Of a stretch of 64,000 nt of DNA, positions 17,695 through 51,931 are shown piece after piece. Below the pieces are notes generated by a model. That model was not told where the DNA came from. It saw nothing but the letters and a program-made list of their open reading frames with translations, and did no database searches. The stretch spans positions 21,413 through 85,412 of the IMG/VR virus record IMGVR_UViG_3300015202_000003, one strand, 5' to 3'. Position 1 is the first letter of the stretch, and every line of letters starts with the position of its first letter. A program made the position numbers and the translations under genes. The DNA is from a virus.

Positions 17695-17752
17695 AATAAC
17701 TTAAATTAAAAAAGAGAGGAATCTTCGTTCTTCTCTTTTTGTCTTTTAAACG
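17695..17752 (+). repeat. 58-bp exact dispersed repeat (copy 1) with GAATCTTCGTTC hairpin
   Basis: Identical to 42823-42880. Confidence 0.9.
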
Positions 17753-17772
17753 AGAAGTATTTCAATTGAAAA

Positions 17773-18045
17773 ATGGAAAAAACAAATAAAGATTTAGACG
17801 CTCTTAGAGATGCTTTTCAAATTTTATCAATTGAAAAAGTTTTAGGTTTTTCTTTTGACTTGGAGATTCTTCTTTGTGAAGATATAAATGTAAGAACAAA
17901 GGAAATTTTAATTGCTCTCTCTTATTTTTTAAAGGTTGGAGACTTTTCTTTGTTAAAAGATCAAATAGAACATACGTTGTCTTTACATTTGGAGCAAGAA
18001 GAGATTCGTAAAGAAGAAAAAATAGAAGATTATTTGAGGTTGTAA
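17773..18045 (+). CDS. Hypothetical protein, paralog of 18050-18412
   Basis: YFLKVGDFSLLKDQIE vs YFHKGDYKKLVEAVE; similar C-termini. Confidence 0.6.
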   Translation: MEKTNKDLDALRDAFQILSIEKVLGFSFDLEILLCEDINVRTKEILIALSYFLKVGDFSLLKDQIEHTLSLHLEQEEIRKEEKIEDYLRL

Positions 18046-18049
18046 TAAA

Positions 18050-18412
18050 ATGTTGGAAGCTAAGAAATATCAATTTTCTGTAGATTTAACAGAGCATCAA
18101 AAAACTTTGTTAGAAATAGTTTTAGAAGATTTTAAAGAAGAAAACAAAGAGCAACAAACCAATTTAAATTTTATTTCAGCTTTTGACCCTTTTGAGTCTT
18201 TTCTTATTCCCAAAAGTTTTTCTTTACGGTTTTCTCACTGTAAAAACAAATCGAATTTAAATAAATGTGTAAGAGCTATTTTAGAAGAAATGCGTTTATA
18301 TTTTCACAAAGGAGACTATAAAAAATTAGTTGAAGCAGTTGAAAAAAATTTAAATTCTTACGAAGGGACAGATGTTTTAGAGTCTCAAATTGAAAAGTTT
18401 TTAGAGGTTTGA
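18050..18412 (+). CDS. Hypothetical protein, paralog of 17773-18045
   Basis: See 17773-18045. Confidence 0.6.
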   Translation: MLEAKKYQFSVDLTEHQKTLLEIVLEDFKEENKEQQTNLNFISAFDPFESFLIPKSFSLRFSHCKNKSNLNKCVRAILEEMRLYFHKGDYKKLVEAVEKNLNSYEGTDVLESQIEKFLEV

Positions 18413-18603
18413 ATTAAGAGAAAACCCTTATTTTTAAAAATGGGAGACCTTTATATGGTGAGAGATAGAATTGGGATGTTACGTTTAAATTTTTTGGAAG
18501 AGATACTGAAAAGAAAACTAACAGTTGAATTTTTATGGAAATTTATTTAAGTAAGGGTCAGTCCTAAAAATTAAAAAATAGATTGAGCAAATAAAAAACT
18601 AAC

Positions 18604-19029
18604 GTGAAAATTAAATTTAAAAAATTAGACCTTAAAGCTACATTACCTCAAAGACAAACAGAGGGGAGTGCGGGCTATGATTTAGCAACGATTGAGTCTG
18701 GCATTGTGGCACCTAACCAATCTATAACTTTAAAAACAGGGTTAGCTATACAAATCCCTGAAGGTTATGCGGGATTTATTCTCTCTCGTTCAGGGCATGG
18801 TTTTAAACACGGTTTAAGACTATGTAATTCTGTTGGTTGCACAGATAGCGATTATATTGGGGAAGTTAAAATTAAGATTCATAACGACTCTCAAATAGCT
18901 TACGAAATAAAAGAGGGAGAAAGAATCGCTCAGTTAGTTGTTGTGCCTTATTTATCTTTCGATTGTGAATGGGTAAAAGAATTAGATAAAACAGAAAGAG
19001 GAGAGAATGGTTTTGGAAGCACAAACTAA
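18604..19029 (+). CDS. dut: Trimeric dUTPase
   Basis: GSAGYDL, SRSGHG, VGCTDSDYIGE, RIAQLV, RGENGFGST motifs. Confidence 0.95.
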   Translation: MKIKFKKLDLKATLPQRQTEGSAGYDLATIESGIVAPNQSITLKTGLAIQIPEGYAGFILSRSGHGFKHGLRLCNSVGCTDSDYIGEVKIKIHNDSQIAYEIKEGERIAQLVVVPYLSFDCEWVKELDKTERGENGFGSTN

Positions 19030-19032
19030 AAA

Positions 19033-19248
19033 ATGTTTTTTAAACCTCCTTGGCCTCAAAGAAAAGGAGGTTTAAAAAAAGTTCGTCTCAATCAAACCAG
19101 AGAATTAGATTGTAAAACAATGTCTGTTGTTGAAATTTTCAATTTAATGGAAAACGAAACTGAAGAACAATTAAAACAAAGAATAGATTTAATCAAAGAA
19201 AAGTTTTTATTGTTTTTTAATTTATTTTCGGGTTGGGATTCAATTTAA
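19033..19248 (+). CDS. Hypothetical protein
   Basis: ORF track. Confidence 0.5.
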   Translation: MFFKPPWPQRKGGLKKVRLNQTRELDCKTMSVVEIFNLMENETEEQLKQRIDLIKEKFLLFFNLFSGWDSI

Positions 19249-19322
19249 CTTAGAATCTTCGTTCTTTGTTTCTTTTAATTTTTAGATTGTAAATCTAAGA
19301 TTTGGAAAGTAAAACTTAATGT

Positions 19323-19361
19323 AAAAAAAGAGCCTTTAATTAAGTTTAAAGGCTCTTTTTT
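19323..19361. terminator. Bidirectional terminator
   Basis: aaaaaagagccttta / taaaggctctttttt between convergent genes. Confidence 0.8.
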
Positions 19362-19383
19362 ATGGGTTTTTTTAAGTCTTATC

Positions 19384-19638
19384 TTATTGTCTTGTGGCTT
19401 CTTCCATTTTCATTTCTAATTCGGCAACGTTTTGCAGACTTGTAAGGTAATAAGACGCCGCCCATGTCATTTTAATGAGAGTTTCTTTAGATGGTTTTAC
19501 ATCGAAATGAGAGCGTGTTTTTTCCACTTCCTTTTTATTGGGGAGAAGTTGGTTTTTGGCGAAACTAAGTTTTTCTTCTAAAGAAGCAAAGGGTTTTTTG
19601 TCGGTTTCCCTGTTGTTTTTGTTGGTGTAGTTTTCCAT
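19384..19638 (-). CDS. Hypothetical protein
   Basis: ORF track; conserved bipartite element upstream. Confidence 0.6.
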   Translation of the reverse strand: MENYTNKNNRETDKKPFASLEEKLSFAKNQLLPNKKEVEKTRSHFDVKPSKETLIKMTWAASYYLTSLQNVAELEMKMEEATRQ

Positions 19639-19731
19639 GCTAATTTAAACGCCTCTTCGGGCTTGAAGTTTCCCACAAAAATTTATAACTGATATAAGCC
19701 CTCAAGGGCCACTCTCCGTTATAATTTTCGT

Positions 19732-20031
19732 TTGTATAAGAAAAGGGTAAAAATAGATAGAATGTCAAATCAAACACAGGAAAGAACAAAGAAACTTTAT
19801 GTTCCCCGCCACGATATTTTAGAGCCTAATTTGTTGTGGGAAAACCGTTTTCAAATCAAGTCTACTTCTTCCGATAGACTTTATATAATAGCCCAAAACA
19901 AGGCTAAAAGGCATTGCGCCTGTAGCTGCCCAAGTTACAGAACGAGAAGATATTGCCGTCACTTAAAAGAACTGGGTCTTGGAGAAAAGGAAGAGTCTTT
20001 AAATTTTAAGTTACAAATTATTCCGGTTTGA
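19732..20031 (+). CDS. SWIM Zn-finger protein (start probably ATG 19762)
   Basis: CSCPSY...YCRHL (CxC...CxH). Confidence 0.7.
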   Translation: MYKKRVKIDRMSNQTQERTKKLYVPRHDILEPNLLWENRFQIKSTSSDRLYIIAQNKAKRHCACSCPSYRTRRYCRHLKELGLGEKEESLNFKLQIIPV

Positions 20032-20153
20032 TAAACATTAAGGCTTTTATTTTATATTTGTCTTATTAATTTTATTTGCGAATTTTTCATTTTCCGAACG
20101 TTTTGGTAATAGAAAATAAAAACACTCTTCTTTAATAGGAGTTTAAATTTAAG

Positions 20154-20666
20154 ATGACCACAAAAACACCTAAACCCAAAAAACCTTTCATGGATTATCC
20201 CGTTTATGAAAGCACAGAAAACGTCCCTTATTCTTCGGGTATAGATTTATCTGGCTATTTAACCCCTCCAAAGGTTTTTTCAGATGAAACAAAAAGAAAA
20301 GACGAAAAAAATAACAACTCTTCGGTTTTCATATCTGAACCAGTTACTTCAAATTCTTTTCCTGTAATTCTTCAAGCTTCTTTTTTGAATATCTTGAATT
20401 TGATTGCTTTAGAAAAGACAAAAGAGCAACCTTACGAAGTTTTACATTTAAAAGAAGGTGCGACTCTGCCTGAAATCAGGTGTTCTTTTAGAAGGCTTTC
20501 AAGAAAATACGATCCTTCTTGGAATCCCGAACAAAAAAAGGAATGTGAGCAAAATATTCTACAATTGAACACAGCATTAGTGGAGTTAGAATCTAAGTTG
20601 GAAACCACTAAAGAAGAGGGTGTAGAAGATTTAGACCTTAAAAACTCTGACCCCTTTGGGGATTGA
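20154..20666 (+). CDS. J-domain (DnaJ-like) protein with altered HPD motif
   Basis: PYEVLHLKEGATLPEIRCSFRRLSRKYDPSWN...ILQLNTA; DPS in place of HPD. Confidence 0.7.
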   Translation: MTTKTPKPKKPFMDYPVYESTENVPYSSGIDLSGYLTPPKVFSDETKRKDEKNNNSSVFISEPVTSNSFPVILQASFLNILNLIALEKTKEQPYEVLHLKEGATLPEIRCSFRRLSRKYDPSWNPEQKKECEQNILQLNTALVELESKLETTKEEGVEDLDLKNSDPFGD

Positions 20667-20688
20667 TTAAGTCAAAATAAAAACTAAG

Positions 20689-21033
20689 ATGATAAAAACA
20701 ACTGTGTTAGAAGAAAAGGAAATTTCCAAACCAAGTTTGGATTTGGATTATCGTTCTTGTTTACTTCAAAATAGAAAACCAGAAACGGAGTTAGAAAAAG
20801 AGCAAATAAAATTAATTTCTTATTCTTGCTTTAAAGACCCTAAATGGGTTTTAAAAAGTCTTTTGCTTTATTGGGTTTTGTTCGCACACATTTGTTTTGC
20901 TGACATAATAAGTTCAAATCACATTCTTTGGATAGCCAATCTTTGTTGTGCGGCTATTGAATGGGGTTTAATTAGATTAATTTATTTTTCTTTGAAAACC
21001 TTTTGGGGTTTCATTTCAAATCTTAAAAAATAA
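20689..21033 (+). CDS. Membrane protein
   Basis: Two hydrophobic segments in the C-terminal half. Confidence 0.55.
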   Translation: MIKTTVLEEKEISKPSLDLDYRSCLLQNRKPETELEKEQIKLISYSCFKDPKWVLKSLLLYWVLFAHICFADIISSNHILWIANLCCAAIEWGLIRLIYFSLKTFWGFISNLKK

Positions 21034-21443
21034 CGTGGAAAACACTTACGATTATTCTAACGGAGGAGATTTTTGTTTAAAACACCTTAATGATTTAAAA
21101 GAAGCGTTTTTAGCTTCCAATGTTTTAAATTCTGAAAGTTGCAAAAAAGTTTTAAAGTTTTTGGAAATTGAAAACCCAGAAGAGTGGGAAAGTTAGAAGA
21201 ATTTTAAATGAAGAACCTCCTGTTAAATTAATAACAGGAGGTTCTTCTCTTTCTTCGTGAACAACTTTTTTATTTTCTAATCTCACCAAATTCTATAAAC
21301 ATTAGACAAAGAGATGTTTCCAACTTTTCTTTCGGGATGTAGATTAAATTCGTCCGCTTTTTATTTTTTCTGTTTCATATTTTGTAATAGAAGTTTGATT
21401 TTCTATAAAAAAACATCTATAATTTAACAGGTGTTTTTTTATT

Positions 21444-21755
21444 TTGATTTCTAACTCTCGTAATTATGTTCTTTATGTTTTAAGAACTCCGTCCAATAAA
21501 TTTAAAGTTGGAATTTCTTCAAATTTTAAAAGTAGGTTGAGGAGTTTCCACACAAACTGTTCAGAATCTTTTGAAATTTATCTTTGTATTGAGGTGGGAG
21601 ATTCTAAGTCTGAGGTTTTAAAATTAGAAAGAAGAATCCATAACAATTTACGTCATAAAAAAACACATGGTGAATGGTTTCAAAATTTGAACGAATCAGA
21701 ATTAAATTATTTAAAAGATTTAGAGCAGTTATATTTTTTCTCTTTTGATTTTTAG
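21444..21755 (+). CDS. GIY-YIG superfamily (T5orf172-like) nuclease domain protein
   Basis: LYVLR...FKVGISSNFKSRL...LERRIH...HGEWF. Confidence 0.8.
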   Translation: MISNSRNYVLYVLRTPSNKFKVGISSNFKSRLRSFHTNCSESFEIYLCIEVGDSKSEVLKLERRIHNNLRHKKTHGEWFQNLNESELNYLKDLEQLYFFSFDF

Positions 21756-21921
21756 AGTTTTATTTATAAGTCTTATCTAAATAAGGATAAGACTTTTTCT
21801 TTTTTCAACTTATAAATTTTTCTAATTTAACTCTTTCAAATTAAGGGCTTGTTTCTTTTTCTTCCATACGTTAAATTCTAATCGTGCTTGAAGAGAAGTA
21901 AACAGAGGAAAAAATTCCACT

Positions 21922-22482
21922 ATGACAGAAACAAAAAAGAAACCGTTCGAGAAAATTGATTGGGAGCCGCTGCTTCCAAAAATGAACTGGGAAAAGTCAA
22001 ATCGTCAGTTGGCTACAGAAACGGGGTTTTCCCCCAGTGCGGTAGCAAGTGCCAGAACAAAGTTCGGCACAGAAAACCCTTTCGCGTCTAAAACTTTTAC
22101 CCCTCAGCAAAGAATATCTTATCTTTATAAGAGAGGAAATTTAAACAAATACACTTCTATTGCCGACTGCGCCAAGGGTGTTAAGGCCTCTGTTTATGAA
22201 GTTCAAAATTTCATAAAAGAGAGAGATTTGGTATTTAGAAGTTCCAACGTCATAAAAATGAAAGAAATGAATTTTGATTTATCTAATCGTGACCTTTCTG
22301 AAATTTGGGATGTAAAGGAAACTATTTTAGGTTCTCACAGAGCTAAATACGGTTTGTATGTAAGATGGGCCGGGGGCTATGATTGGACGCCTAAGCCAGA
22401 GTATAGGAAAGCGATTGAGGAAGAGGGGATGAAAGCGGCTAATTTTAAGCCTTGTTATTTAGTTCCTATTGGGAATAGTTAA
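21922..22482 (+). CDS. HTH-containing DNA-binding protein, paralog of 23369-23971
   Basis: SNRQLATETGFSPSAVASARTKF HTH; C-terminal NRDLSEIW...PEYRKAIEEE...NFK. Confidence 0.55.
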   Translation: MTETKKKPFEKIDWEPLLPKMNWEKSNRQLATETGFSPSAVASARTKFGTENPFASKTFTPQQRISYLYKRGNLNKYTSIADCAKGVKASVYEVQNFIKERDLVFRSSNVIKMKEMNFDLSNRDLSEIWDVKETILGSHRAKYGLYVRWAGGYDWTPKPEYRKAIEEEGMKAANFKPCYLVPIGNS

Positions 22483-22493
22483 CACTAAACAAT

Positions 22494-22535
22494 AAAAAAA
22501 GAGACAGAGCCTTAAAAAAGTTCTGTCTCTTTTTT
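22494..22535. terminator. Bidirectional terminator
   Basis: aaaaaagagacaga / tctgtctctttttt. Confidence 0.8.
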
Positions 22536-22546
22536 GTTTTAAATTT

Positions 22547-22765
22547 TTAGAACGGCCCGATAACACCATTATCCAAGGTAACTTTAGCGTTAGTAAGGGT
22601 TTCCTCGTCGCTCAAGCCTCTTTTACAGATGATTACGACGTATTCAACCCCTCCTTGTTTAAAGGCGGCTGCGGCTTCTAATTTCTTGTGTAGAATATTT
22701 GTAATGGCGCTAAACAAAGAAGAAAATTTCAAAAGTAAAGCGAGTTGTTGAAAAGTTTTGTTCAT
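22547..22765 (-). CDS. Hypothetical protein
   Basis: ORF track; ends at the shared terminator. Confidence 0.55.
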   Translation of the reverse strand: MNKTFQQLALLLKFSSLFSAITNILHKKLEAAAAFKQGGVEYVVIICKRGLSDEETLTNAKVTLDNGVIGPF

Positions 22766-22846
22766 GGTTATTTCTCGTTCTCTTTATTTAATCTCTGTTA
22801 TTTTTTTCAGGTGTTAATTTTCTAATTTCCAAGTGTCCATAAATTT

Positions 22847-23023
22847 ATGGAAAACGAACTTATTTTAGAGCCTGAAGAATCGGAGTGGTTTATTGGTATG
22901 CTTGAAAACGGGGTGTGGCAAACTTTTCAAAGTGCGGATATTTGGAATAGTGGTTTTTACAACGTTCAAGGCCCATTTGAGGCTCAAGAAGAGGCTCAAA
23001 ACTGTTTGTCGTTATATCTTTAA
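22847..23023 (+). CDS. 58-aa protein missed by the ORF track; paralog of the C-terminal half of 23030-23362
   Basis: MENELILEPEESEWFIG...VQGPFEAQEEA vs KWFIG...VFGPYDSEAEA. Confidence 0.6.
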   Translation: MENELILEPEESEWFIGMLENGVWQTFQSADIWNSGFYNVQGPFEAQEEAQNCLSLYL

Positions 23024-23029
23024 CATAGA

Positions 23030-23362
23030 ATGAAAAAATTAAACCTAATCTCACCTCAGATATTAAAATTAAACCTGTTAGAAGAGATAAAGTCTCTGTT
23101 GATGGAAAGAGAAGCAGAGGGTTTAGAAAGATTTTCGGCTCAGTTACAAAAAGAGAGTTTGGATAAAATTAAAAAAGAGATGGAACAAAACTTTAAATGG
23201 TTTATTGGGATAGGTTTTGACGCTAAATTTCAAATATTTTCTTCTCTTTTAACCCGTCTTGAAATATTAGAAGAGTTTGACACTTTTAAACTTTCCTGTG
23301 TTTTTGGGCCTTATGACAGCGAAGCAGAGGCCCTTTCAGAAACAAGCCCTAAAAACTGGTAG
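23030..23362 (+). CDS. Hypothetical protein
   Basis: ORF track; ends in TAG in frame with the next ORF. Confidence 0.6.
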   Translation: MKKLNLISPQILKLNLLEEIKSLLMEREAEGLERFSAQLQKESLDKIKKEMEQNFKWFIGIGFDAKFQIFSSLLTRLEILEEFDTFKLSCVFGPYDSEAEALSETSPKNW

Positions 23363-23368
23363 GAAAAC

Positions 23369-23971
23369 ATTATTTCAAAACAATTTAACATCCATTGGGA
23401 AGAAGAAATTAAAAAAATTGATTGGACACAGTCTCTTCAAGACATTGGAGACTTTTACGGGGTTTCGAGAGAAAGAATCAGGCAAATTAGAAATTTCTAC
23501 AAGATTCCTGCGAGAACAAAAGAAAACAAGATAGGACATAATTCTCAAACATTCCATTTGAAAATTTTAGAAGAGAAGTTTGAACGGGGAGAATTTCTTC
23601 TTTTTTCTTCGATTGCGGAGTGTGGGAGAGAACTTAAAATTCCTTTCAGATTCATTTCTCTTTTTTTAAAAAAGAAAAAGGGGTTGGAATATGTAGCTAT
23701 CAAGGTTCAAAAATTAGAGCAGGTAAATTGGTTATTGCCTAATGCTGATTTAAATGAAGTTTGGGGTGTGGACTATCAAAGAATAGCTTCTTATCGTTAT
23801 TTAAATCAAAAACCTTCTAAATGGAACCGGGAATACGGGCATCTTCCAAAAGACCCTGAATATTTTAAAGCCTTAGAACAGGAAAAAAGAAAACATTCTA
23901 ATTTCAAAAACATTTGCTTGGTTAAAATTAAAAGAGGCAAGATTAGGAGTAATTTAATTAAAAAACCGTAA
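23369..23971 (+). CDS. HTH DNA-binding protein, probably longer than ORF-track 23558-23971 (ATT start or readthrough)
   Basis: Frame open from 23363; upstream part encodes IDWTQSLQDIGDFYGVSRERIRQI (HTH), matching the N-terminus of paralog 21922. Confidence 0.55.
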   Translation: MISKQFNIHWEEEIKKIDWTQSLQDIGDFYGVSRERIRQIRNFYKIPARTKENKIGHNSQTFHLKILEEKFERGEFLLFSSIAECGRELKIPFRFISLFLKKKKGLEYVAIKVQKLEQVNWLLPNADLNEVWGVDYQRIASYRYLNQKPSKWNREYGHLPKDPEYFKALEQEKRKHSNFKNICLVKIKRGKIRSNLIKKP

Positions 23972-24002
23972 TTTTTTAAGTTCTAAAGTCATAAATTAAA
24001 AT

Positions 24003-24215
24003 ATGACACAAGAAGAGAAATTAAAGGAATACAAATTAAAATTTCAAGAATCCAAAAGAATTTTAAATGAAAAGAGAACGATGTTTGATGCTAACCCAAC
24101 GAATTTAAATTTAAAAACAATGAAATTATCTTCTTTCTTTTTTCAAAAATGTTTTTTTGAGTTGGGAGATTTGACAAAAAATATAAAAGACAATGGAAAC
24201 CCTAAAGCAGAGTAA
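24003..24215 (+). CDS. Hypothetical protein
   Basis: ORF track. Confidence 0.5.
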   Translation: MTQEEKLKEYKLKFQESKRILNEKRTMFDANPTNLNLKTMKLSSFFFQKCFFELGDLTKNIKDNGNPKAE

Positions 24216-24403
24216 AATTAAAGAGCCTTCAAAGTGTCTCAGGTTTTCGGGAGAATTTAAATTGAAAGAGTGTGGGATAATTTTCTATGTTTTTAACAAC
24301 TATTACTCAACAATTGCGGAACAACAGTTTCAATCAATTCTATTTACGATTTAGGAAAACCATCTTCCTATGCATCTCATTTTTCAACTAAACCCTAATT
24401 CAA

Positions 24404-24619
24404 ATGCCTTATAAATTTGACCGGATTGAATGGTGCATTGAGGTTTCTCAATCTTTGGAGTTAAAAAAAGAATTAATTGATTTTAAAAAGTATCAAGCCT
24501 CTTATTCCTGCAAGGAATTTATTAGTGGGTTGGATTATGTTTTAGATTTATGTGGTTTTGAAGACACGTTGATTGCATGGGAAATCGAACATCAAATAAG
24601 TTTAATTGAGAATATATAA
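24404..24619 (+). CDS. Hypothetical protein
   Basis: ORF track; TAATG coupling to next ORF. Confidence 0.55.
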   Translation: MPYKFDRIEWCIEVSQSLELKKELIDFKKYQASYSCKEFISGLDYVLDLCGFEDTLIAWEIEHQISLIENI

Positions 24620-24879
24620 TGGGAAAAGAATATATGGATTGGCTATCTAACCTTAAAAAAGGGGATGAGTTTGTTTTTGAGCGGGGGATCAAACCCAGTC
24701 AAATTTTATCAGTTGAAAAAGTTTTAGGTTCTTCTAAGAAGAAAATTAGAACTTCAGCAGGAGAGTTTCAAAAAGGAGGGGGTAGATTTTTAGGGGAGGA
24801 GTTTGGGGGGATGTTGCCTATTACGGTAAATTTAAAAAAGAGGTTGGAAGAAGCGGATAAATTAAAAGAAGAAGATTGA
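24619..24879 (+). CDS. Hypothetical protein
   Basis: ORF track; coupled start. Confidence 0.55.
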   Translation: MGKEYMDWLSNLKKGDEFVFERGIKPSQILSVEKVLGSSKKKIRTSAGEFQKGGGRFLGEEFGGMLPITVNLKKRLEEADKLKEED

Positions 24880-24939
24880 AATTAAAAAACACTTAGAATC
24901 TTCGTTCCTTGTTTTAAGTTTTATTTCAATCAAATTTTT

Positions 24940-25002
24940 AATTTCTCTTATTAAATTTTAAAAGGCTATATCTCCTGTCTCAAGCGTTTAAATAAGGGAC
25001 AA
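24940..25002 (+). promoter_or_regulatory. Duplicated promoter-like element
   Basis: 24940-24995 matches the reverse complement of 37316-37371 at 54/56 nt; 24985-25002 equals 37404-37421. Confidence 0.7.
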
Positions 25003-25039
25003 GGAAAAAATCAACGGAAAAGGAGGTGTTAAATACATT

Positions 25040-25381: not shown

Positions 25382-25409
25382 GAAAGAGATTTAAGGAATT
25401 AAACTCGGA

Positions 25410-25457
25410 TTAAAAAAGGCTTCTTGGATTTCAAATTTCTAAGAAGCCTTTTTTAAT
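25410..25457. terminator. Hairpin terminator
   Basis: attaaaaaaggcttctt / aagaagccttttttaat. Confidence 0.8.
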
Positions 25458-25477
25458 TTTACAATCTAAAAAACCTA

Positions 25478-25882: not shown

Positions 25883-25927
25883 CAAAGAATCTTCGTAAGA
25901 TTCAATTCTAAGAACAAATTAAAAACT

Positions 25928-26317: not shown

Positions 26318-26436
26318 GTTCTAATTTCATCTATTAAATTAATTAGGAATCTTCGTTCTTCATGTTAAGTCTTTAATTTATCGCTCTTTCAAAAACAAGT
26401 TGTTTTTGAAAGAGTTGGGAGAGTTTCAATTAAAAA

Positions 26437-27402: not shown

Positions 27403-27406
27403 AATT

Positions 27407-27442
27407 AAAAAGCCCTTTGCCTTTAGTGGGCAGGGGGCTTTT
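27407..27442 (+). terminator. Rho-independent terminator
   Basis: aaaagccct-tgcc / ggca-gggctttt. Confidence 0.7.
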
Positions 27443-27447
27443 CAGTT

Positions 27448-42801: not shown

Positions 42802-42822
42802 GGGAGTAAAAAACCTAATAAG

Positions 42823-42880
42823 AATAACTTAAATTAAAAAAGAGAGGAATCTTCGTTCTTCTCTTTTTGTCTTTTAAACG
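42823..42880 (+). repeat. 58-bp exact dispersed repeat (copy 2)
   Basis: Identical to 17695-17752. Confidence 0.9.
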
Positions 42881-44128: not shown

Positions 44129-44188
44129 TTTATTTCTTAAATTATAAATAGAAGAGTTTCTATCTTTTTTTATTCGTTTTTAAATCTA

Positions 44189-44830
44189 ATGCACAAATTT
44201 CATTTTTCAGAAAATTTAAAGCCTATGGGTTCAGGGTATGGTTTAACCCAAGGAAAAGAGAATTTCGTAGAAGTCGTTTCTAAATTGGGTTCAAAGAATT
44301 GGAACACGATTACAAGAAAAAATCAACAAAGAATCGTCAAAAAAACTTTGAAGGTTCCAATTGAAGCGGAGGTTTTCGGAGATGATAAATCTTTGTTTTC
44401 TTTTTCTTCTCTTTCTACTTACGATTACATATTAGATTCCAAGTCCGAATATAAACACCCGTTTGATTTCGATTCAAATTTTAAAATTTTTTTGACTTCT
44501 TCCAAAGAGCCGCGAGTAGAAAAAACTCTAATAGAAAAACAGGGTTTTTGGTTTGGGGTTCAAACAAAGTTTAAAGATTCTAAGATTAATTTTTTATTGG
44601 GAGAAACCGTTTCTAAATTTGTTTTAGGAGAAGAGTTTGAAATGAAAGTGAATTGGGGGGACATCTATTTTGTCAAAGATAAGTTGTTTGTTTCTTTACC
44701 GTCCAAATTTAATTTAGAGAACTCTCCCTCTCTTCAAGCAGAAATTTTAGATTACGGTTTATTTTTTCAAAGCATAGTAAAAAATTTAGGTTTGGTTTCT
44801 CATCAATGGAATCCTTTTGTTTTAAAATGA
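44189..44830 (+). CDS. Hypothetical protein
   Basis: ORF track 213 aa. Confidence 0.65.
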   Translation: MHKFHFSENLKPMGSGYGLTQGKENFVEVVSKLGSKNWNTITRKNQQRIVKKTLKVPIEAEVFGDDKSLFSFSSLSTYDYILDSKSEYKHPFDFDSNFKIFLTSSKEPRVEKTLIEKQGFWFGVQTKFKDSKINFLLGETVSKFVLGEEFEMKVNWGDIYFVKDKLFVSLPSKFNLENSPSLQAEILDYGLFFQSIVKNLGLVSHQWNPFVLK

Positions 44831-44961
44831 GTCGGAAGAAGAAATAACAAAAAAAGACTGTAGTAAAAAACACATCGAATTAATTTTCTTTGTGTTTTTT
44901 TTAATTTCTGTTATAATGATTTTAGCGACTTCTTTTGTGTTTTTAAAACGTTTAAATAAAT

Positions 44962-46173
44962 ATGAGTTTTTATTCAGATAACCAATACAATCCACAACCC
45001 GTTTATTACGAAGATTTAAACAAAAAAGAAAAGGAGAAGAAGTTCTCTTGGAAAAGAGTTTTAGGTTTTTTCTTTAAATTAAATCTCACTCTGTTCTCAT
45101 TTTTTATTTTGTGGTTTTGGTGGGGCACAGTTCCTCATCCCAAAATTTTACTTCGTAAAAAAACAAACTCTAATCAGATTTTAAATTTGAATTTAAAATC
45201 CTCTTTCATAAAGAAAAGCGGAAAGAAGAAAACCAGATTCAAATTCAAATTTATGGCTAACAACATCATCGTCTCCGGCGCCGGAACTGCCTCCGCCAAC
45301 GGCACATATACGCCCAATACTGCTAACTTGGCATCTCCTGCCAGAAATATTCCGCTCTTTGCAATGGCGGGCGGTGCCAACTTCTACCTATACGATTACT
45401 CGGCAGGCACAAGTGGAGCTGGAGCTTGTGCGTGGGCAGTGGGGCCAGATTCTACAAACGCAAACAGATGGTATGGGACTTCCACTTATTACTCGTCTTT
45501 TGCGGCTGCGCTTACAGCAGGGCCACAGGCGTCTACTTACACAGTCGTCGCTGGCACCGCTCCCGTTCCTACCGTCATATCGCAAGCCGCAGGACCAACT
45601 GGAAATGAATCTGGGCCTTCAAATGTTTCTAATGCAACTCCTCAAGTTCCGCTTCCCGGTGCCCCAACTTCGCTTACGGCAGCTTTTGCTTTAGCAATGG
45701 TTACTGGAAACCCAATTGCTCCAACTGCTAACTTAGCATGGGTAGCTCCTTCTGGGGGTCAAGCCGCAACTTCATACAATGTTCATAGAGGGACAACTGT
45801 AGGAGGCGAAAATACAACGCCTTTAGCAACTGGAATTACGGGTTTAACTTATACAGATACAACTCCCTTAAACGCAACAACATATTTTTATGTAGTGGAC
45901 GCGGTAGACGCTGCGGGAGAGGGTATTGCTTCTAACGAAGTGGGTATTAAAACGGCAACTCTACCTCCAACAACCTTAGCTGTTACTGGTTCAAACGGCT
46001 CTGCTTCTCTTTTGTGGACGGGAGCAACTGGAGCTATTAACTATAATGTAAAACGTTCTTTAAGCGCGGGCGGAACATTTACAACAATAGCTACGGTTGC
46101 TACAACAACCTATACTGATACATCTGTAACAAACGGCACAACCTATTACTACGAAGTCACGGCTTTGGATTAA
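44962..46173 (+). CDS. Membrane-anchored FN3-repeat surface protein A; last FN3 lacks its final strand
   Basis: N-terminal TM; internal MANNIIVSGAG domain; W...Y.V.R...YTD...YFY.V.AV FN3 patterns; ends YYYEVTALD. Confidence 0.75.
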   Translation: MSFYSDNQYNPQPVYYEDLNKKEKEKKFSWKRVLGFFFKLNLTLFSFFILWFWWGTVPHPKILLRKKTNSNQILNLNLKSSFIKKSGKKKTRFKFKFMANNIIVSGAGTASANGTYTPNTANLASPARNIPLFAMAGGANFYLYDYSAGTSGAGACAWAVGPDSTNANRWYGTSTYYSSFAAALTAGPQASTYTVVAGTAPVPTVISQAAGPTGNESGPSNVSNATPQVPLPGAPTSLTAAFALAMVTGNPIAPTANLAWVAPSGGQAATSYNVHRGTTVGGENTTPLATGITGLTYTDTTPLNATTYFYVVDAVDAAGEGIASNEVGIKTATLPPTTLAVTGSNGSASLLWTGATGAINYNVKRSLSAGGTFTTIATVATTTYTDTSVTNGTTYYYEVTALD

Positions 46174-46199
46174 GGTTTATTAGTTTGATGAGAGAAATT

Positions 46200-46235
46200 A
46201 AAAAGAGAGGTTTTCAAAAAAACCTCTCTTTTTTT
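46200..46235 (+). terminator. Terminator between the two FN3 genes
   Basis: aaaaagagaggttt / aaacctctcttttt followed by Ts. Confidence 0.8.
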
Positions 46236-46255
46236 ACAGTTTTTTTATTAGTTTA

Positions 46256-47386
46256 ATGAGAGAAAGTAAAAAGAGTAGAAATTTAATTAAAGTCGGAGTA
46301 GGTTTATTTTTAGGGTTGGGGTTTTTAAAAGATATTTTTTATTTTCCTTCATCTCGTTCTTTACCTTCTTCCATATCAAAACCTTTACCTACTTCTTCTC
46401 CGGAAAAGTTAAAAAACTATAAAGAAATAGATAAGTGGTTAAAGGAAACCAGTAAGAAGAGAGGACGTAAAAAATTTAAGGAAAGAAGAAAACCAGATTC
46501 AAATTTAAAATTTATGGCTAACAACATCATCGTAAGCGGCGCAGGAACTGCCTCCGCCAACGGAACATACACGCCCAATACTGCTAACTTGGCGTCTCCT
46601 ACTCCCTTCACCCCGATGTATGCAATGGCGAGCGGTGCGTGCTTATATGTGTTTAGTCCCAGCGCTGGATATTTTTTCTGGGCGTTTGGCACCTCCACCG
46701 CAGCCATCTCCGGCAACACCGCCGGGTTGTATACCTCAGGCTTTTCTTGGACCACTCTCGCCGCCGCTATCGCAGCAGGGCCACAAGGATTAACATACGT
46801 AGTATCTTCTGGCACCGCTCCCGTCCCTACCGTCACCCAAGCCGCTGCCGCAACGGTTCCCAACTCTCCTACAAATTTAACAATAGTTTCAACATTTGGT
46901 TTAGTTACTGGAAATTCAAATGCTCCTATTATAAATTTAACATGGGTAGCTCCTGCTTCGGGGTCTACGGTTGTTTCATATTCAATTTTTAGAGGGACAA
47001 CTACGGGAGGAGAATCAGCAACACCTTTAGCAACGGGTGTAACGGGTTTAACATATTCTGACACTACAGTAAATAATAACACGACATATTTTTACACGGC
47101 TCAAGCGGTTAATTCGGGCGGGAACTCGGTTTCTTCTAATGAAGCCACAATTAAATCTGTCACAATTCCGCCTTCTGTTTTAGTAGCTGTAAAAGGAAAT
47201 ACAATTATAAATTTAACATGGACGGGTTCAACGGGAGCTTCTTCTTATAACATAAAAAGGTCAACAACATCTTCAACGGGGCCATTTACGTTTATAACAA
47301 GTGTTCCCAACACTCAAACAATATATTCGGATACGGGTTTAACTAACGGTCAAATTTATTATTATCAAGTAACGGCTTCGGATTAG
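46256..47386 (+). CDS. Membrane-anchored FN3-repeat surface protein B; last FN3 lacks its final strand
   Basis: N-terminal hydrophobic anchor; same MANNIIVSGAGTASANGTYTPNTANLASP block; ends YYYQVTASD. Confidence 0.75.
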   Translation: MRESKKSRNLIKVGVGLFLGLGFLKDIFYFPSSRSLPSSISKPLPTSSPEKLKNYKEIDKWLKETSKKRGRKKFKERRKPDSNLKFMANNIIVSGAGTASANGTYTPNTANLASPTPFTPMYAMASGACLYVFSPSAGYFFWAFGTSTAAISGNTAGLYTSGFSWTTLAAAIAAGPQGLTYVVSSGTAPVPTVTQAAAATVPNSPTNLTIVSTFGLVTGNSNAPIINLTWVAPASGSTVVSYSIFRGTTTGGESATPLATGVTGLTYSDTTVNNNTTYFYTAQAVNSGGNSVSSNEATIKSVTIPPSVLVAVKGNTIINLTWTGSTGASSYNIKRSTTSSTGPFTFITSVPNTQTIYSDTGLTNGQIYYYQVTASD

Positions 47387-47423
47387 ATTTAAGAATTAAA
47401 AAATAAATCATTAGTTATCTATT

Positions 47424-47720
47424 ATGGATTTTATACCTGTTGAATCTTCTCCTTCTAATGTTGTCTCTGTTACTCCTTTTGACAACCCTGTAATTCTTCC
47501 TCCTGTCATTCTTTCTAATGATACGATTTATAATTTTACGAAGTTGAATGTAGAATTTAAAACTCCGATTGAATTTAACCTTATAAATTTTAATTTTAAT
47601 ATGTCGGGTGAGATTAGGTTTAATATAACGAATCCACAAAACGGAATTAGCATAGATGCCCCTGTAATTTCTAACGTTTCTTTTTCCCCTACAATTACAA
47701 CACCTGTTTCTAATTTATAG
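47424..47720 (+). CDS. Small beta-rich protein starting with an FN3 G-strand-like segment
   Basis: MDFIPVESSPSNVVSVTP; continues the truncated FN3 of 46256-47386. Confidence 0.65.
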   Translation: MDFIPVESSPSNVVSVTPFDNPVILPPVILSNDTIYNFTKLNVEFKTPIEFNLINFNFNMSGEIRFNITNPQNGISIDAPVISNVSFSPTITTPVSNL

Positions 47721-47769
47721 GAAGTGGGGATAAAAAAGACGGGGGTCAAAATTAGTTTTAAAAAAGAGT

Positions 47770-47806
47770 AAAAAACCTTTTAGATTAAATTTCTAAAAGG
47801 TTTTTT
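47770..47806 (+). terminator. Terminator
   Basis: aaaaaaccttttaga / tctaaaaggtttttt. Confidence 0.8.
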
Positions 47807-47816
47807 CGTTATAAGT

Positions 47817-47845
47817 TTGACTTTTAATGTCTAATATCTTAAAAT
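47817..47845 (+). promoter_or_regulatory. Sigma70-like promoter
   Basis: TTGACT-N17-TAAAAT, 9 nt before ATG 47855. Confidence 0.55.
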
Positions 47846-47854
47846 TAAATTACT

Positions 47855-48766
47855 ATGAGATTAAAAGATTTTATGAGTCAGCCTTCTGAAACGGTTGAAC
47901 TTTTGTCCTGTGCTTTAGTTGGAACGGAAATAAAAATAAAAAGGGATGGTGATCCTTATTTATCTCTTTATTTAAAAGATTTTTCGGGTAGTTTAGAAGT
48001 TCCTGTTTGGGATGAGCTTGATTACAAAAACTATTTAAATTTTTCTTTTCCTCTAAGTGTGGAAGTAAGCGTAAGAAGTTCGAGTGCCAAAGGTTCGACA
48101 GATCGCAAGAATTACAGATTAACACAGCCGTTAAGGGTTACAGATGTTTCTTTTGAAAATTATATAAAAACGGTAGATTATAAATTTTATTGGAGTAAGA
48201 TAAAAGAAACGATAGACACTTTATCTTCTGATTATAGGGAATTAGTTTTAGCTATTTTACGAGTAGAAGAAGTTAGGAAAGACTTTTTAACTCATCCTGC
48301 GGCTCTCAAACACCATCAAAATTATGAATCTGGTTTAGTTTTTCATACTTCTAATGTTGTTGGTTGGGTAGAAAAATTTTATGATTTCTATACAGAACAG
48401 CAAATAAATTTAAACAGAGACTTGCTTCTTTCTGCCGCAATTTTACATGATGTTTCAAAAACGGTAGAGTATGAAAGGGATGGTTTAGGTTGGACAAGCA
48501 ATGTTTTTTCTATTGAACATCCATTATCTACAATTGCTTGGATTAGAAATTTAAACACAACTTTAAATGATGTTCAATTGAAAGCCTTACAAGATTTAAT
48601 TCTACAACATCACGGCACTTACGGAAATTATGAAATAAATAGTATAGAATCAAACATTTTACATTTTGCGGATAATTTGGATGCAAAGGCGCATTGTCCA
48701 AAAACACCTTCTTTCGGTTTAGATTATGGCTTAGAAAAGAAGAGAATTAGAAAGGAAGAGAATTAG
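47855..48766 (+). CDS. yhaM: YhaM/Cbf1-like 3'-5' exonuclease (OB fold plus HD domain)
   Basis: PYL.L.LKDFSG...W; PAALKHHQ...GL..HT; LLSAAILHDVSK; HHG; LHFADNLDAK. Confidence 0.85.
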   Translation: MRLKDFMSQPSETVELLSCALVGTEIKIKRDGDPYLSLYLKDFSGSLEVPVWDELDYKNYLNFSFPLSVEVSVRSSSAKGSTDRKNYRLTQPLRVTDVSFENYIKTVDYKFYWSKIKETIDTLSSDYRELVLAILRVEEVRKDFLTHPAALKHHQNYESGLVFHTSNVVGWVEKFYDFYTEQQINLNRDLLLSAAILHDVSKTVEYERDGLGWTSNVFSIEHPLSTIAWIRNLNTTLNDVQLKALQDLILQHHGTYGNYEINSIESNILHFADNLDAKAHCPKTPSFGLDYGLEKKRIRKEEN

Positions 48767-48780
48767 AAAAGAAGAGAATT
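48731..48780 (+). repeat. 16-bp tandem repeat x3 across the yhaM stop
   Basis: ttagaaa(a/g)gaagagaa. Confidence 0.8.
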
Positions 48781-48873
48781 ATAATTTTATTTTTAGATTT
48801 CATCTTAAAATTAATAACTCTTTATAGAAAAAAGCTGTTTATTATTTAGTTAGAAACCGTTTATAATATAGCT

Positions 48874-49251
48874 ATGCCATTAAAAGATCAGAAAATTTCA
48901 CAGACAGTATTAGAGAACATAGACAAGGGAGATTGGTTAGAATTTCAAACTCCCAATGGTTTAAAACGTGGACAATGTGTTTCAATAGAAGAGGAAACCC
49001 CAATTTTTAGTTTTTATGTTCGTGAGAATTTAAATTATTATTTTCCGAAATCGGATTTTAGTTTTTGGGTTTTAGTTCCTACAAAAGAGCCTACTTTGTA
49101 TAGGGTTTCTTTGGATTTTATTAAGTTTAAAATTTATAATCCTACTCTTGTTATTCCCGGTTTAAATTTAGCTTCTCGTTTTGAGTTAGACTATTTCCCT
49201 GATATTTTAAAAAGAAAGGTAGTTTCTTTAAGGCGGTCTTTTTCCAATTAG
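48874..49251 (+). CDS. Hypothetical protein
   Basis: ORF track; CGTTTATAAT 6 nt before ATG. Confidence 0.6.
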   Translation: MPLKDQKISQTVLENIDKGDWLEFQTPNGLKRGQCVSIEEETPIFSFYVRENLNYYFPKSDFSFWVLVPTKEPTLYRVSLDFIKFKIYNPTLVIPGLNLASRFELDYFPDILKRKVVSLRRSFSN

Positions 49252-49333
49252 CATTTCAACTTATGTTTTAACAGGGGAAGAACAGGAACTAAAAGATTTT
49301 CTTTCGGCTGTATTTGAACACGGACAAAATTTA

Positions 49334-49708
49334 ATGTTTGAGCAGAAAAGTTTAATTGAAGAGTTAACTTCTTTAAAATTTGAAGAATTAACGTGGGAAG
49401 AGGCGTCCAATCAAAAAACATTGTATTCGGCTCAAACGGAAATAGGAATGGTTTTAGATAGAATTTCTACGTCTCAGACTCGTTTTAATTTTTTAAAGGG
49501 AGAGTATAAACGTTCCAAATTTGAATATCCTACAACTCATTTTCCCAACAAAATGACATACCAAAGTCAGATAGAAAAAGTATTGGATATTTTAGGAGAC
49601 TTAAACAAGTCTTTAACTTCTTTACTAAGTATTTGGGATCGAAAATATAGTCGTTTAAAAAATGTGACTTTCCAACAAAACTTAGACAGATCAAACAAAA
49701 TGTTTTAA
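49334..49708 (+). CDS. Hypothetical helical protein
   Basis: ORF track. Confidence 0.6.
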   Translation: MFEQKSLIEELTSLKFEELTWEEASNQKTLYSAQTEIGMVLDRISTSQTRFNFLKGEYKRSKFEYPTTHFPNKMTYQSQIEKVLDILGDLNKSLTSLLSIWDRKYSRLKNVTFQQNLDRSNKMF

Positions 49709-49716
49709 GTAAAAAA

Positions 49717-49977
49717 ATGATTTACGTTATCTTGTCTATTTTTTTATGGGTTTCTTTAAGCCTGTTAAATTCTTTCATTTGTTATAAGAAGAACAGATAT
49801 AAAAAATTATTTTTTTTAGAGGTTTTTATTTTTGGTTTGTTGTGTCCTCTTTTAGCACTTCCATTTTTAATACATGGTCTTACGGGTTTTGCGTTATATT
49901 TTTGGATTTTTTCTTATAGTTTTTCTTCTATTGTGGTTTTGTTTTCGATTAAAAAAGAATTAAAAGGTAAAAGTTAA
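49717..49977 (+). CDS. Three-TM membrane protein
   Basis: Strongly hydrophobic sequence. Confidence 0.6.
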   Translation: MIYVILSIFLWVSLSLLNSFICYKKNRYKKLFFLEVFIFGLLCPLLALPFLIHGLTGFALYFWIFSYSFSSIVVLFSIKKELKGKS

Positions 49978-49978
49978 A

Positions 49979-50629
49979 ATGAATTTTTCACAGGCGTTAG
50001 AAATCAGTAAGAGTTATCAACTGAATTTTAAAGGTTCGGAATTAACCGAAACCCAACAAAGAATTTTAAAAGAGTTTAAATTTGATGCGAAGCCTTTTGT
50101 TCGTAAATTTTATTTGTTACAAAACGAAACTTTTGAGAATTTTCTTCTTCAATTAGACACTTTGGAAAACTCTTTGTTAAAATATTGGTTTTATTTAATT
50201 AAGCCCAGATTTTATTCTTTAAGTGTTGGCGACATGAGCAGGGTTTACGATTATTTTGTTGACCCTGTTAATTTTTTTACCCCTAAAACAAACGATATTT
50301 TTTCTTCTAAATCTTTTTTAAATGATACTTCTTTAGAAAAGTGTATTAAGACTTGTGTTGCTTGGGATTACGAGTGTAAGACACTAAGAAAATTTGTTTT
50401 TTCTCATCCAGAAATAAAAGAATCTAAGTATTGGGATTTTGATATTTTTCCTAAAACTGTTAAGTCCAATATTTCTTTTGATGATTTAGCAGAGATAATT
50501 TTTAGATGTAATGAACGTAACGTTTACAAATATAGTGTTTACCCTGAATTTTTAGAGCTTCAAAAACAGGGTTATGAAATTTCGGATATGAGATCAATTA
50601 CTCGCCAAAGATACGGTTTTGAAGATTAA
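49979..50629 (+). CDS. Hypothetical protein
   Basis: ORF track 216 aa. Confidence 0.65.
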   Translation: MNFSQALEISKSYQLNFKGSELTETQQRILKEFKFDAKPFVRKFYLLQNETFENFLLQLDTLENSLLKYWFYLIKPRFYSLSVGDMSRVYDYFVDPVNFFTPKTNDIFSSKSFLNDTSLEKCIKTCVAWDYECKTLRKFVFSHPEIKESKYWDFDIFPKTVKSNISFDDLAEIIFRCNERNVYKYSVYPEFLELQKQGYEISDMRSITRQRYGFED

Positions 50630-50655
50630 CGGCGTGCGTCGTCTAAAAAGCAATA

Positions 50656-50913
50656 ATGGAACCATTAGAGTCTCAAAATCAATCTCTCACGAATCAAGTT
50701 TCAAGTTTAGAATTTGATTTAGATAAAGCCAACAAAGAAATTAAGAAATGGAAAAGGATCGCACAAGCATTTTATAAAGTCCACAAAGAAAAAGAGAGTT
50801 TTATTAAAAACGATTCTAATTATTTATTACAAATTTCTCGCAGATTAAATGATCTTTCTAAAAGTGCGGATGAGATAGTTAAAACACATTCTTTAGATGA
50901 AGAGAATAAATAA
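50656..50913 (+). CDS. Hypothetical coiled-coil protein
   Basis: ORF track. Confidence 0.55.
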   Translation: MEPLESQNQSLTNQVSSLEFDLDKANKEIKKWKRIAQAFYKVHKEKESFIKNDSNYLLQISRRLNDLSKSADEIVKTHSLDEENK

Positions 50914-50980
50914 ATTTAAATTACACAGATAAAACAAAGAACGAAGATTCTAAGTCAAATTTTAATTAAATTAAAATACC

Positions 50981-51379
50981 ATGAAACACGAAAAAGCCAT
51001 TAAAAAATTAGAGCCTTATGTTTTAGAAATAGCTAAAACAATGAATTTAACAAATTGGGATATTTCTCTTTCTGATGAAATATGTGATTACGAATCTTCT
51101 GCAACTTGCACTTGTTTGAATGGGAGAAAAGATGCTTTAATTAGATTAAGCGAAGATTTTTGGGGAGGTTCTTTAGAGGTTCAAAGAGATACAATTGTTC
51201 ACGAACTTCTTCATATTGTTTTGGCTCCCATGCACAATCCTTTAGCAAAAGTTTTATATGATCCCGCTTTAAGCTTTTATATTTCTTCTTTAGAATACGG
51301 CGTAGACGATTTAACAAACATTTTAGCTCCTTTTCTTCCGTTACCTCCTAAAATTAAAAAAGAAAAACATGAGAAATAA
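50981..51379 (+). CDS. Zincin-like metallopeptidase (HExxH)
   Basis: RDTIVHELLHIVL followed by LEYGVD. Confidence 0.6.
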   Translation: MKHEKAIKKLEPYVLEIAKTMNLTNWDISLSDEICDYESSATCTCLNGRKDALIRLSEDFWGGSLEVQRDTIVHELLHIVLAPMHNPLAKVLYDPALSFYISSLEYGVDDLTNILAPFLPLPPKIKKEKHEK

Positions 51380-51516
51380 AATTACGATCTCAGTTGACAA
51401 TTTATTGTTGAATAAAAAACATAGTGGTTTCTTTCAACAAGAAAAGAATGTTTTTCCGAGATAGAAACTATAGTAGATACGATAAACCAAGAATTTAAAT
51501 TAGTTTTTAAAATACC

Positions 51517-51858
51517 ATGTTATTAGATACAAAATTTTTTAAAAGGTCTTCAAATGTGTTTGAGATTTTAATTAGAGAGTTAGAAATTAAAACTCATTAT
51601 TCCCATAAACAATTAAAAGAATTTTTGTTTAAATATATCAAAATTCATCAGGGTTCGGGTTTTACACCTGCACAAATCAAAGATAAATTTGAAGAGTTAG
51701 TTTTAGCTTTAGGGGAAGCGGATAGTTTGAATGTGGAATCTAAACAAGGGGAAGACCCTTTTAGATTTTTCAACTACGCTCTTTTGGATATTTCTCTTTC
51801 TGATAATGTTTTAGAAAATTTAATTTCTCAAATCCCCGTTAAAAAGAAAGTTAAATAA
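51517..51858 (+). CDS. Hypothetical protein
   Basis: ORF track. Confidence 0.6.
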   Translation: MLLDTKFFKRSSNVFEILIRELEIKTHYSHKQLKEFLFKYIKIHQGSGFTPAQIKDKFEELVLALGEADSLNVESKQGEDPFRFFNYALLDISLSDNVLENLISQIPVKKKVK

Positions 51859-51931
51859 ATAAAACTTTGAATCTTCGTTCTTAGTTTTATTTATTTTTTG
51901 TTACACTGTTACAGGTTAAAAAATAATTGCA

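Follow-up and report, generated by a model that had tools for sequence, protein, structure and literature searches.

The window analysed here, i.e. the whole stretch of 64,000 nucleotides, comprises bases 21413-85412 of a single virus record (IMGVR_UViG_3300015202_000003) of 198,095 bp and 33% G+C, which is linear and was estimated with CheckV to be 88% complete. The gaps between its genes carry a family of short hairpins that share a near-invariant 12-nt tip, GAATCTTCGTTC, and this family is the subject of the present analysis. Simple open reading frame (ORF) calling yielded approximately 283 ORFs in the whole genome, 256 of them on the plus strand and together covering 86% of the DNA, and the GC skew has the same direction as transcription. 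Matches to PHROG families comprise a DnaB-like helicase, a DNA polymerase in pieces, a ribonucleotide reductase and a UvsX-like recombinase, as well as the structural proteins portal, prohead protease, major head protein and tail sheath, the last a myovirus-type gene. A Pfam scan of 20 window proteins remained mostly blank and returned an HD-domain protein, a D12 adenine methyltransferase, an endonuclease VII, a DnaJ domain and DUF6573, none of which could be tied to the hairpin. Many small proteins are encoded by the phage without annotation.

Two multisubunit RNA polymerase domains were searched for in the phage and not found, and a search for a T7-like RNA polymerase gave nothing, which says little, as the same search matched in no control genome. 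A weak match to sigma-70 region 2 (genome 113430-113600; E 1.7e-5, below the Pfam cut-off) is present in a 207-aa ORF, and the host polymerase is probably redirected by this sigma-like factor of the phage. The sequences upstream of start codons are A-rich and G-poor, with a GGAG-like word in only 38 of the 283 ORFs, and no Shine-Dalgarno (SD) signal was seen genome-wide. In the window, about 20 genes have in common the word AAATTAAAA(A)(A)ATG directly at the start codon. The absence of an SD signal, together with the A-rich leaders, points to a host that initiates translation without SD pairing and suggests one of the Bacteroidota type.

Extent of the hairpin family

The window contains ten exact copies of GAATCTTCGTTC, compared with a mean of 0.01 in shuffled sequences, none of which (0 of 100) reached ten; the original prediction had put the expectation in 64 kb at the same value of about 0.01. 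All the exact copies it had named were recovered, with starts at 17719, 19253, 24896, 26347, 33645, 34131, 42847 and 51869 on the plus strand and at 32674 and 50939 on the minus strand, and its statement that they are intergenic holds for every window copy, as all of them fall between called ORFs. The family had been placed within 17695-51890, where it is indeed present, but it is not confined to this interval: 26 exact copies are spread over the 198,095 bp of the genome. The covariance-model search of the whole genome that had been proposed as a check was run with a model built from these 26 copies and retrieved further members with one to three changes; combined with a relaxed pattern and inspection, it brings the family to approximately 38-40 copies genome-wide. 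Among the four near copies proposed earlier, those at 35952, 41514 and 58639 (minus strand) are true diverged members, whereas the one at 25887 belongs to a separate hairpin, GAATCTT-CGT-AAGATTC (25887-25903), which has the first ten bases of the 12-mer in another register and with another loop and is therefore not a member.

About 39 of the 40 copies are intergenic, intergenic DNA making up 14% of the genome, and the single exception shares 15 nt with the end of a called ORF. No other k-mers of the genome are enriched between genes to nearly the same degree as the tip words; TCTTCGTTC, for example, has 23 of its 24 genome occurrences in intergenic DNA.

Pairing, tip sequence and folding strand

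Pairing statistics were taken on a gap-free alignment of 38 copies centred on the tip. With a symmetric structure, standard pairs are found in 82% of the cells, compared with 68.2% when the 3' letters were shuffled (0 of 500 shuffles reached 82%) and with 45-56% when the pairing partner was slid by one to three columns; the 26-copy exact set shows the same picture. At pair 21-40, 18 copies have CG, 15 have AU, four have UA and one is unpaired; at pair 20-41, AU is present in 25, GC in eight and CG in two. Several stems are unique to one copy, such as AAAACCTTT/GAGGGTTTT, ATTCCTTG/TGGGGAAT, TTAACAAA/TTTGTTAA and GTTTCTCTAA/TGGGAGAGAC. The hairpin is selected both for its pairing and for the sequence of its tip.

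The tip consists of a 3-4-bp GAA(U)/(G)UUC helix on a CUUC or UCUUCG loop, depending on whether the U-G pair that possibly closes CUUC is counted. The earlier assignment of GAA/TTC as the helix that closes a TCTTCG loop agrees with the rare variants within the 12-mer, which keep the pairing by compensatory or wobble changes (GAG..CTC in three copies, GGT..ACC in one and the G-U form GAG..TTC in two). Below the top helix, many copies have two pyrimidine-pyrimidine mismatches, followed by a C-G that is almost always paired, and in about half of the copies the top helix is limited to 5 bp and the lower stem is weak. According to nearest-neighbour rules the 12-mer alone (GAAUCUUCGUUC) would have a folding energy of +0.8 kcal/mol.

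The family also has a preferred strand. A G-U pair occurs at position 24-37 in 11 copies and the tip U-G in 37 of 38, and as both would turn into A-C mismatches on the complementary strand, folding of the motif strand is favoured; this strand is predicted to be the more stable one in 32 of 38 copies (mean -10.0 vs -7.5 kcal/mol). Thirty of the approximately 38-40 copies lie on the plus strand, as do the genes, and about 32 of 40 are co-oriented with their neighbour genes, including two minus-strand copies beside minus-strand genes, which makes an RNA element likelier. With regard to the earlier proposal of a protein-recognised hairpin of either RNA or single-stranded DNA (ssDNA), the paired structure and the kept tip stand and RNA of the motif strand is favoured, while ssDNA of the opposite strand is disfavoured by its folding and by the G-U pairs.

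Placement at gene boundaries and interpretation

In 22 of 32 co-oriented cases the tip begins 4-48 nt past the nearest stop codon of a long ORF, and the 5' arm often includes this stop. Downstream, the distance from the tip to the next ATG is 18-51 nt in 17 of 28 cases and never less than 18 nt. Copies were found in early-looking regions of small ORFs, in the replication module and beside structural genes, and a gene of 2099 aa has copies on both sides. As a purely 5' context (the divergent gap at window 33645) and a purely 3' context (the convergent gap at window 32674) both occur, the element is a boundary mark that is neither strictly a leader nor strictly a trailer.

In nine copies with differing intervening stems, an 11-nt box, ATA(A/G)CTNAAAT, starts exactly 23 nt before the tip; one further copy has it at -24, and most copies are without it. 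It could be a phage-specific promoter element (for the sigma-like protein), a processing or cleavage signal, or half of an outer stem. The form ATA(A/G)CTGAAAT is also present without a fixed-tip hairpin at window 4771-4781 (minus strand) and at genome 9549 (minus strand), 100163, 102529 and 190317, and some of these sites directly precede another hairpin.

Three subfamilies share 36-58 bp at 90-100% identity and are far apart in the genome. At most 58 bp are similar between any copies, and many have only the tip in common. The 58-bp identity noted earlier between two copies is exact (17695-17752 and 42823-42880). Inverted pairs, 42-233 bp apart, were found at window 34131(+)/34173(-) and at genome 9045(-)/9278(+) and 175732(+)/175801(-); they number only three or four among the approximately 40 copies. 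The members in the window are as follows (z, folding energy relative to shuffles); the last line gives a second class of hairpins that is discussed below.

17696-17744, plus strand: strong copy of subfamily A, with the box ATAACTTAAAT at 17696-17706, a 14-bp stem, the tip GAATCTTCGTTC at 17719-17730 and a T-rich tail; starts 29 nt past the stop codon of the DnaB-like helicase and ends 42 nt before the next ATG; -16.5 kcal/mol, z -5.3
19243-19274, plus strand: weak-stem copy of subfamily C, ACTTA-tip-TTTGT with a 2x2 U-U internal loop; stop codon 4 nt before the tip, ordinary terminator next at 19324-19361; z -1.1
24886-24917, plus strand: weak-stem copy, 16 nt past a stop codon; z -0.5
26337-26368, plus strand: weak-stem copy, 29 nt past a stop codon; unrelated 15-bp hairpin next at approximately 26383-26415
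32660-32699, minus strand: strong copy in a convergent gap between the last DNA polymerase piece (plus strand) and two minus-strand genes, co-oriented with and 3' of the latter; -13.1 kcal/mol, z -3.7
33622-33670, plus strand: copy of subfamily B in a divergent gap that lacks a co-oriented gene upstream; the box ATAACTAAAAT at 33622-33632 precedes the tip by 23 nt, and the next ATG follows after 22 nt
34121-34184, both strands: inverted pair of an exact copy at 34131-34142 (plus) and the one-mismatch copy GAATCTCCGTTC at 34173-34184 (minus)
35942-35973, plus strand: variant GGGTCTTCGCTC, with a compensatory G-C for A-U in the tip helix
41504-41535, plus strand: variant GAATTTTCGTTC, with a C-to-T change in the loop
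42824-42872, plus strand: strong copy that matches the one at 17695-17752 without a difference over 58 bp; box at 42824-42834
50929-50960, minus strand: weak-stem copy, antisense to both flanking plus-strand genes, with no minus-strand ORF near
51855-51894, plus strand: strong copy whose stem, AAATAAATAAAAC/GTTTTATTTATTT, is found in no other copy; the 5' arm contains the upstream stop codon; -14.3 kcal/mol, z -6.4
58629-58660, minus strand: variant AAGTCTTCGTTC, a diverged member
19324-19361, 21210-21247, 27408-27442, 33097-33135, 34599-34633 and 35509-35545: clamp-class hairpins

The reading that we favour, with a probability of about 0.45, is that of an RNA mark at cistron boundaries that is read by a factor and controls mRNA processing or stability, with the strong copies also acting as leaky terminators. 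A cis-acting stem-loop would be formed by the motif strand at cistron boundaries, most likely in polycistronic phage mRNAs; its variable lower stem would need only to pair, and the near-invariant tip would be the recognition part, i.e. a sequence-specific site for one trans-acting factor, either an RNA-binding protein or a nuclease, of the phage or of the host. The complex of factor and hairpin would punctuate transcripts by defining or protecting RNA ends after read-through, cleavage or partial termination, and this punctuation would set the stability and the relative expression of the adjacent cistrons, while copies with strong stems would additionally function as leaky intrinsic terminators. 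The family, its intergenic placement, the selection on pairing and on the tip and the strand preference are established from the sequences, while its action as RNA, its reading by a factor and the effect of that reading are inferred from them. The tip is not thermodynamically special, given its +0.8 kcal/mol and the lack of a cUUCGg motif, and recognition by a factor is therefore the most economical reason for its constancy. Stability fails to explain a fixed tip over drifting, compensating stems, which leaves recognition, copying or both.

A more specific version is possible, if doubtful: a dedicated loop-specific RNA-binding protein or nuclease, of phage or host, may read the approximately 40 tips, about ten of them as box plus hairpin, as a genome-wide post-transcriptional punctuation in a host without SD initiation. 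Equally tentative is the proposal that the tips would thereby label the borders of phage cistrons so that the mRNA is processed, protected or recognised as the phage's own, with a signal and a reader that match no described family. None of the candidate readers named in the original prediction (YhaM, the HTH paralogs and the nucleases) was linked to the hairpin; only an HD-domain protein at window 47855-48766, perhaps the "YhaM", turned up. A lambda-type nut site has a comparable layout. Such a site combines a linear boxA with a boxB hairpin read by N, and a lambdoid genome has two of them, behind early promoters. About ten copies of the present family likewise have a box at a fixed distance upstream of a conserved-loop hairpin whose stem need only pair. 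In contrast to nut, there are approximately 40 sites genome-wide, most of them without a box and two with an inverted one, and an N-like protein was not identified, the Pfam scan covering 20 window proteins.

Closest in spirit are the CUUCGG intercistronic hairpins of phage T4, which, according to the account of Tuerk et al. (1988) given in PMC8948821, are numerous, have one preferred loop, are mostly intergenic and are linked to mRNA stability and RNA-end effects. Both families consist of many small intergenic hairpins with one loop, and the loop described here also contains CUUCG. The base that follows CUUCG is, however, U in 30 copies, C in four and A in one, and never G, with a changed loop in the remaining three of the 38, and the covariation register pairs U4 with G9 around CUUC, so that no cUUCGg tetraloop results; this tetraloop was rejected as a description of the tip because of the wrong closing base. 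Moreover, the T4 loop is hyperstable while the present tip is predicted to be unstable (+0.8 kcal/mol), and the conserved unit is 12 nt long instead of 6.

Intercistronic hairpins at a density of approximately one per 4-5 kb, which punctuate polycistronic mRNAs and leave protective 3' hairpins, are a further likeness that the family has with the RNase III sites of phage T7 and with enterobacterial REP stabilisers. RNase III requires a helix of about two turns, whatever the loop, and many of the present copies are too short for this; no RNase III gene was found in the phage. REPs conserve the stem and travel with RAYT. Their arms are conserved, with a 5' GTAG-type word, their loop is variable and they mostly form inverted doublets, whereas here the loop and the top helix are kept and the arms vary. 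A search for a Y1/RAYT transposase (PF01797) matched in control genomes and gave no match in the 198-kb record, whose 88% completeness makes this absence less than absolute. The earlier suggestion of a REP-like mobile unit is weakened by this result, by the conservation of loop instead of stem and by the compensatory change, which differs from copy-and-decay.

Several observations weigh against a factor-read RNA mark. An antisense orientation to both neighbours, with no minus-strand ORF near, is seen in six copies, which a strictly sense-RNA signal does not predict, and because transcription and replication are co-directional according to the GC skew, the strand bias cannot separate RNA from plus-strand ssDNA. 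The claim that the outer stems differ and still pair is upheld by the alignment-wide 82%, but not by each copy: only four of ten window copies fold beyond shuffles (z -3.7 to -6.4), and the other six are no better than shuffles (z -0.5 to -1.6). The box is inverted at the same offset in two copies, which fits recognition at the DNA level better than at the RNA level. As distant subfamily members are identical over 40-58 bp, part of the uniformity stems from recent copying or gene conversion and not from selection alone, and because membership was defined via the tip, the measured constancy of the tip is partly due to ascertainment.

The same sites could be factor-independent attenuators, i.e. 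graded intrinsic terminators composed of A-tract, stem and U-tract, with the shared tip as a frozen accident spread by copying. The copies begin right after stop codons and have the layout of ordinary terminators (stop codon, AAATTAAAAA, stem, T-run); at least five T within 8 nt follow 20 of 38 copies, the stem energy is -8 kcal/mol or lower in 9-14 copies, which could terminate transcription, and a simple terminator scan calls one copy terminator-like. The original prediction had set the element apart from ordinary terminators, and it is distinct from those of the phage that have a G+C clamp. A separate class of approximately 25 hairpins genome-wide is composed of an A-tract, a C2-4/G2-4 basal clamp, an AT-rich upper stem, a variable loop and a T-tract, several of them sharing a TTAGA-loop-TCTAA top, and these clamp-class hairpins look like bidirectional intrinsic terminators. 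They are found at most of the convergent junctions, four in number (genome 28839, 56921, 58157 and 63312), the fixed-tip family at one (genome 54086, i.e. window 32674). The G+C of the fixed-tip family lies at the tip and not at the base beside the U-tract, the lower stem of about half of its copies is weak, and several gaps hold both classes in either order (genome 40665/40736, 121310/121410/121465 and 190333/190381). Furthermore, copying alone would not be expected to give unique compensating stems under an unchanged, unremarkable tip, and attenuators of this kind are considered an unlikely explanation of the family.

A further alternative is a DNA-level recombination cassette, either PeSL-like or MITE-like, in which micro-homology would shuffle single-gene cassettes and the hairpin would be incidental. 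The subfamilies, which are 90-100% identical over 36-58 bp and up to 25 kb or more apart, fit this idea, as do the inverted pairs and the direct copies that often flank single small ORFs (genome 96403/96925, 189756/190381, 55057/55543 and 163856/170275); PeSLs do likewise in T4-type phages, in which they consist of a stem-loop followed by a sigma-70-like -35/N17/-10 promoter, a Shine-Dalgarno site and a start codon (PMC2839356, PMC4122927). Like PeSLs, the present hairpins are phage-specific, conserved and intergenic and are frequent among small variable ORFs, and near-identical copies could recombine. Unlike in PeSLs, no sigma-70-type or Bacteroidota-type promoter and no SD site lie beside the hairpin, and the ATG is often as close as 18-50 nt; promoter-like sites number 53 compared with 58.6 in shuffles, and a TAnnTTTG box within 90 nt downstream was found for 2 of 40 copies only. 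The UvsX-like recombinase is at most 31% identical to that of cultured relatives (tblastn), so that membership of the T4-type group is loose. Since most copies share only a 12-20-nt tip, pairing is kept by compensatory change and a Y1 transposase was not found, a cassette is regarded as quite unlikely. If it were the explanation, the PeSL idea would be extended far beyond the classical T4 group.

Recognition could also take place on double-stranded DNA, with a phage regulator that binds GAATCTTCGTTC as a GAA-N6-TTC dyad at many sites between genes. Cluster A mycobacteriophages have stoperators, which are duplex protein-binding sites without hairpin potential (PMC9283540) and resemble the family in being dozens of copies of an asymmetric word of 12-14 bp in short intergenic gaps, with an orientation bias relative to transcription. 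Weak-stem copies retain the sequence, the box occurs in both orientations, and the phage encodes the sigma-like protein and many unannotated small proteins. A duplex site would, however, leave unexplained why the flanks covary to keep pairing, why G-U occurs and not A-C and why changes in the 12-mer are compensatory, and such an operator is thus held to be improbable. A hairpin of ssDNA for replication, priming or nicking, perhaps via the opposite strand with its stable C(GAA)G mini-hairpin motif, is highly improbable: the loop complement does read CGAAG and the strand bias parallels the GC skew, but in 32 of 38 copies the opposite strand is predicted to be the less stable one, the G-U pairs become A-C mismatches, an HUH/Y1 enzyme was not found, and the placement tracks stop and start codons.

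A factor-read RNA mark would be relevant beyond this record. Large lytic phages have to balance hundreds of co-oriented genes, the post-transcriptional means for doing so are known for few model phages of Proteobacteria, and the mRNA biology of Bacteroidota-type hosts is poorly understood. One short RNA word at approximately 40 gene boundaries would, if true, provide a handle to a new RNA-binding regulator or nuclease, and the same handle would show how such phages partition polycistronic transcripts.

Relatives, rejected motifs and other repeats

Searches for relatives covered several collections. A blastn search of 7.2 kb against 50,697 phage records gave nothing, and a 15-mer scan of IMG/VR gave 98 stretches, all of them single matches, two of which, from one 170-kb contig, are a coding repeat and not hairpins. 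Single matches to a pattern with 18 fixed positions numbered 50 in metagenomes and 25 in species genomes; they are coding or chance matches without shared proteins, and the covariance model found only two isolated look-alike hairpins. Rfam gave no match at gathering score in the 64-kb window, with only sub-threshold terminator-like matches around four copies. No close relatives of the helicase and capsid proteins were found in IMG/VR or in a word-indexed protein set. The nearest homologue of the major head protein (genome 149217-150644) is 70% identical (P0001, on a single 4.1-kb ENA contig) and the next about 40%, among 1.8 billion representatives, which indicates that this phage lineage is very sparsely sampled.

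Several other explanations of the motif were tried and rejected. The T4-type late promoter TATAAATA was looked for beside the hairpins and has only 10 plus-strand copies genome-wide, and the Bacteroidota -7 box has no association with the hairpins. A MotA-like layout, with the tip as a -30 box plus a -10 element, was rejected because several copies leave too little distance to the ATG. An RNA partner complementary to the loop was not supported, CGAAGAT being present only in inverted copies and coding repeats. A terminator for a phage RNA polymerase was dropped, as the multisubunit domains were not found and the T7-like null result carries little weight, and a de novo promoter search by mismatch k-mers proved too noisy in AT-rich DNA. 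A GANTC methylation site in the tip was likewise discarded, since GANTC is not avoided.

Several short palindromes are strongly depleted genome-wide relative to base composition, with TTCGAA present 0 times (approximately 66 expected), GTAC once (214), CTAG four times (397) and GATC 133 times (420), which looks like restriction-site avoidance. The D12-class adenine methyltransferase gene is located at window 52792-53499.

Two further repeat families were observed in the genome. One consists of the hairpin CTCTG-CTTGT-CAGAG followed by GGGTAATTCAC and is present at genome 15350, 21331, 31083 (window 9671), 107755, 109039 and 189642. The other, TCCTGCTGC-TTTA-GCAGTGGGA, is found at genome 71, 4961 and 21387.

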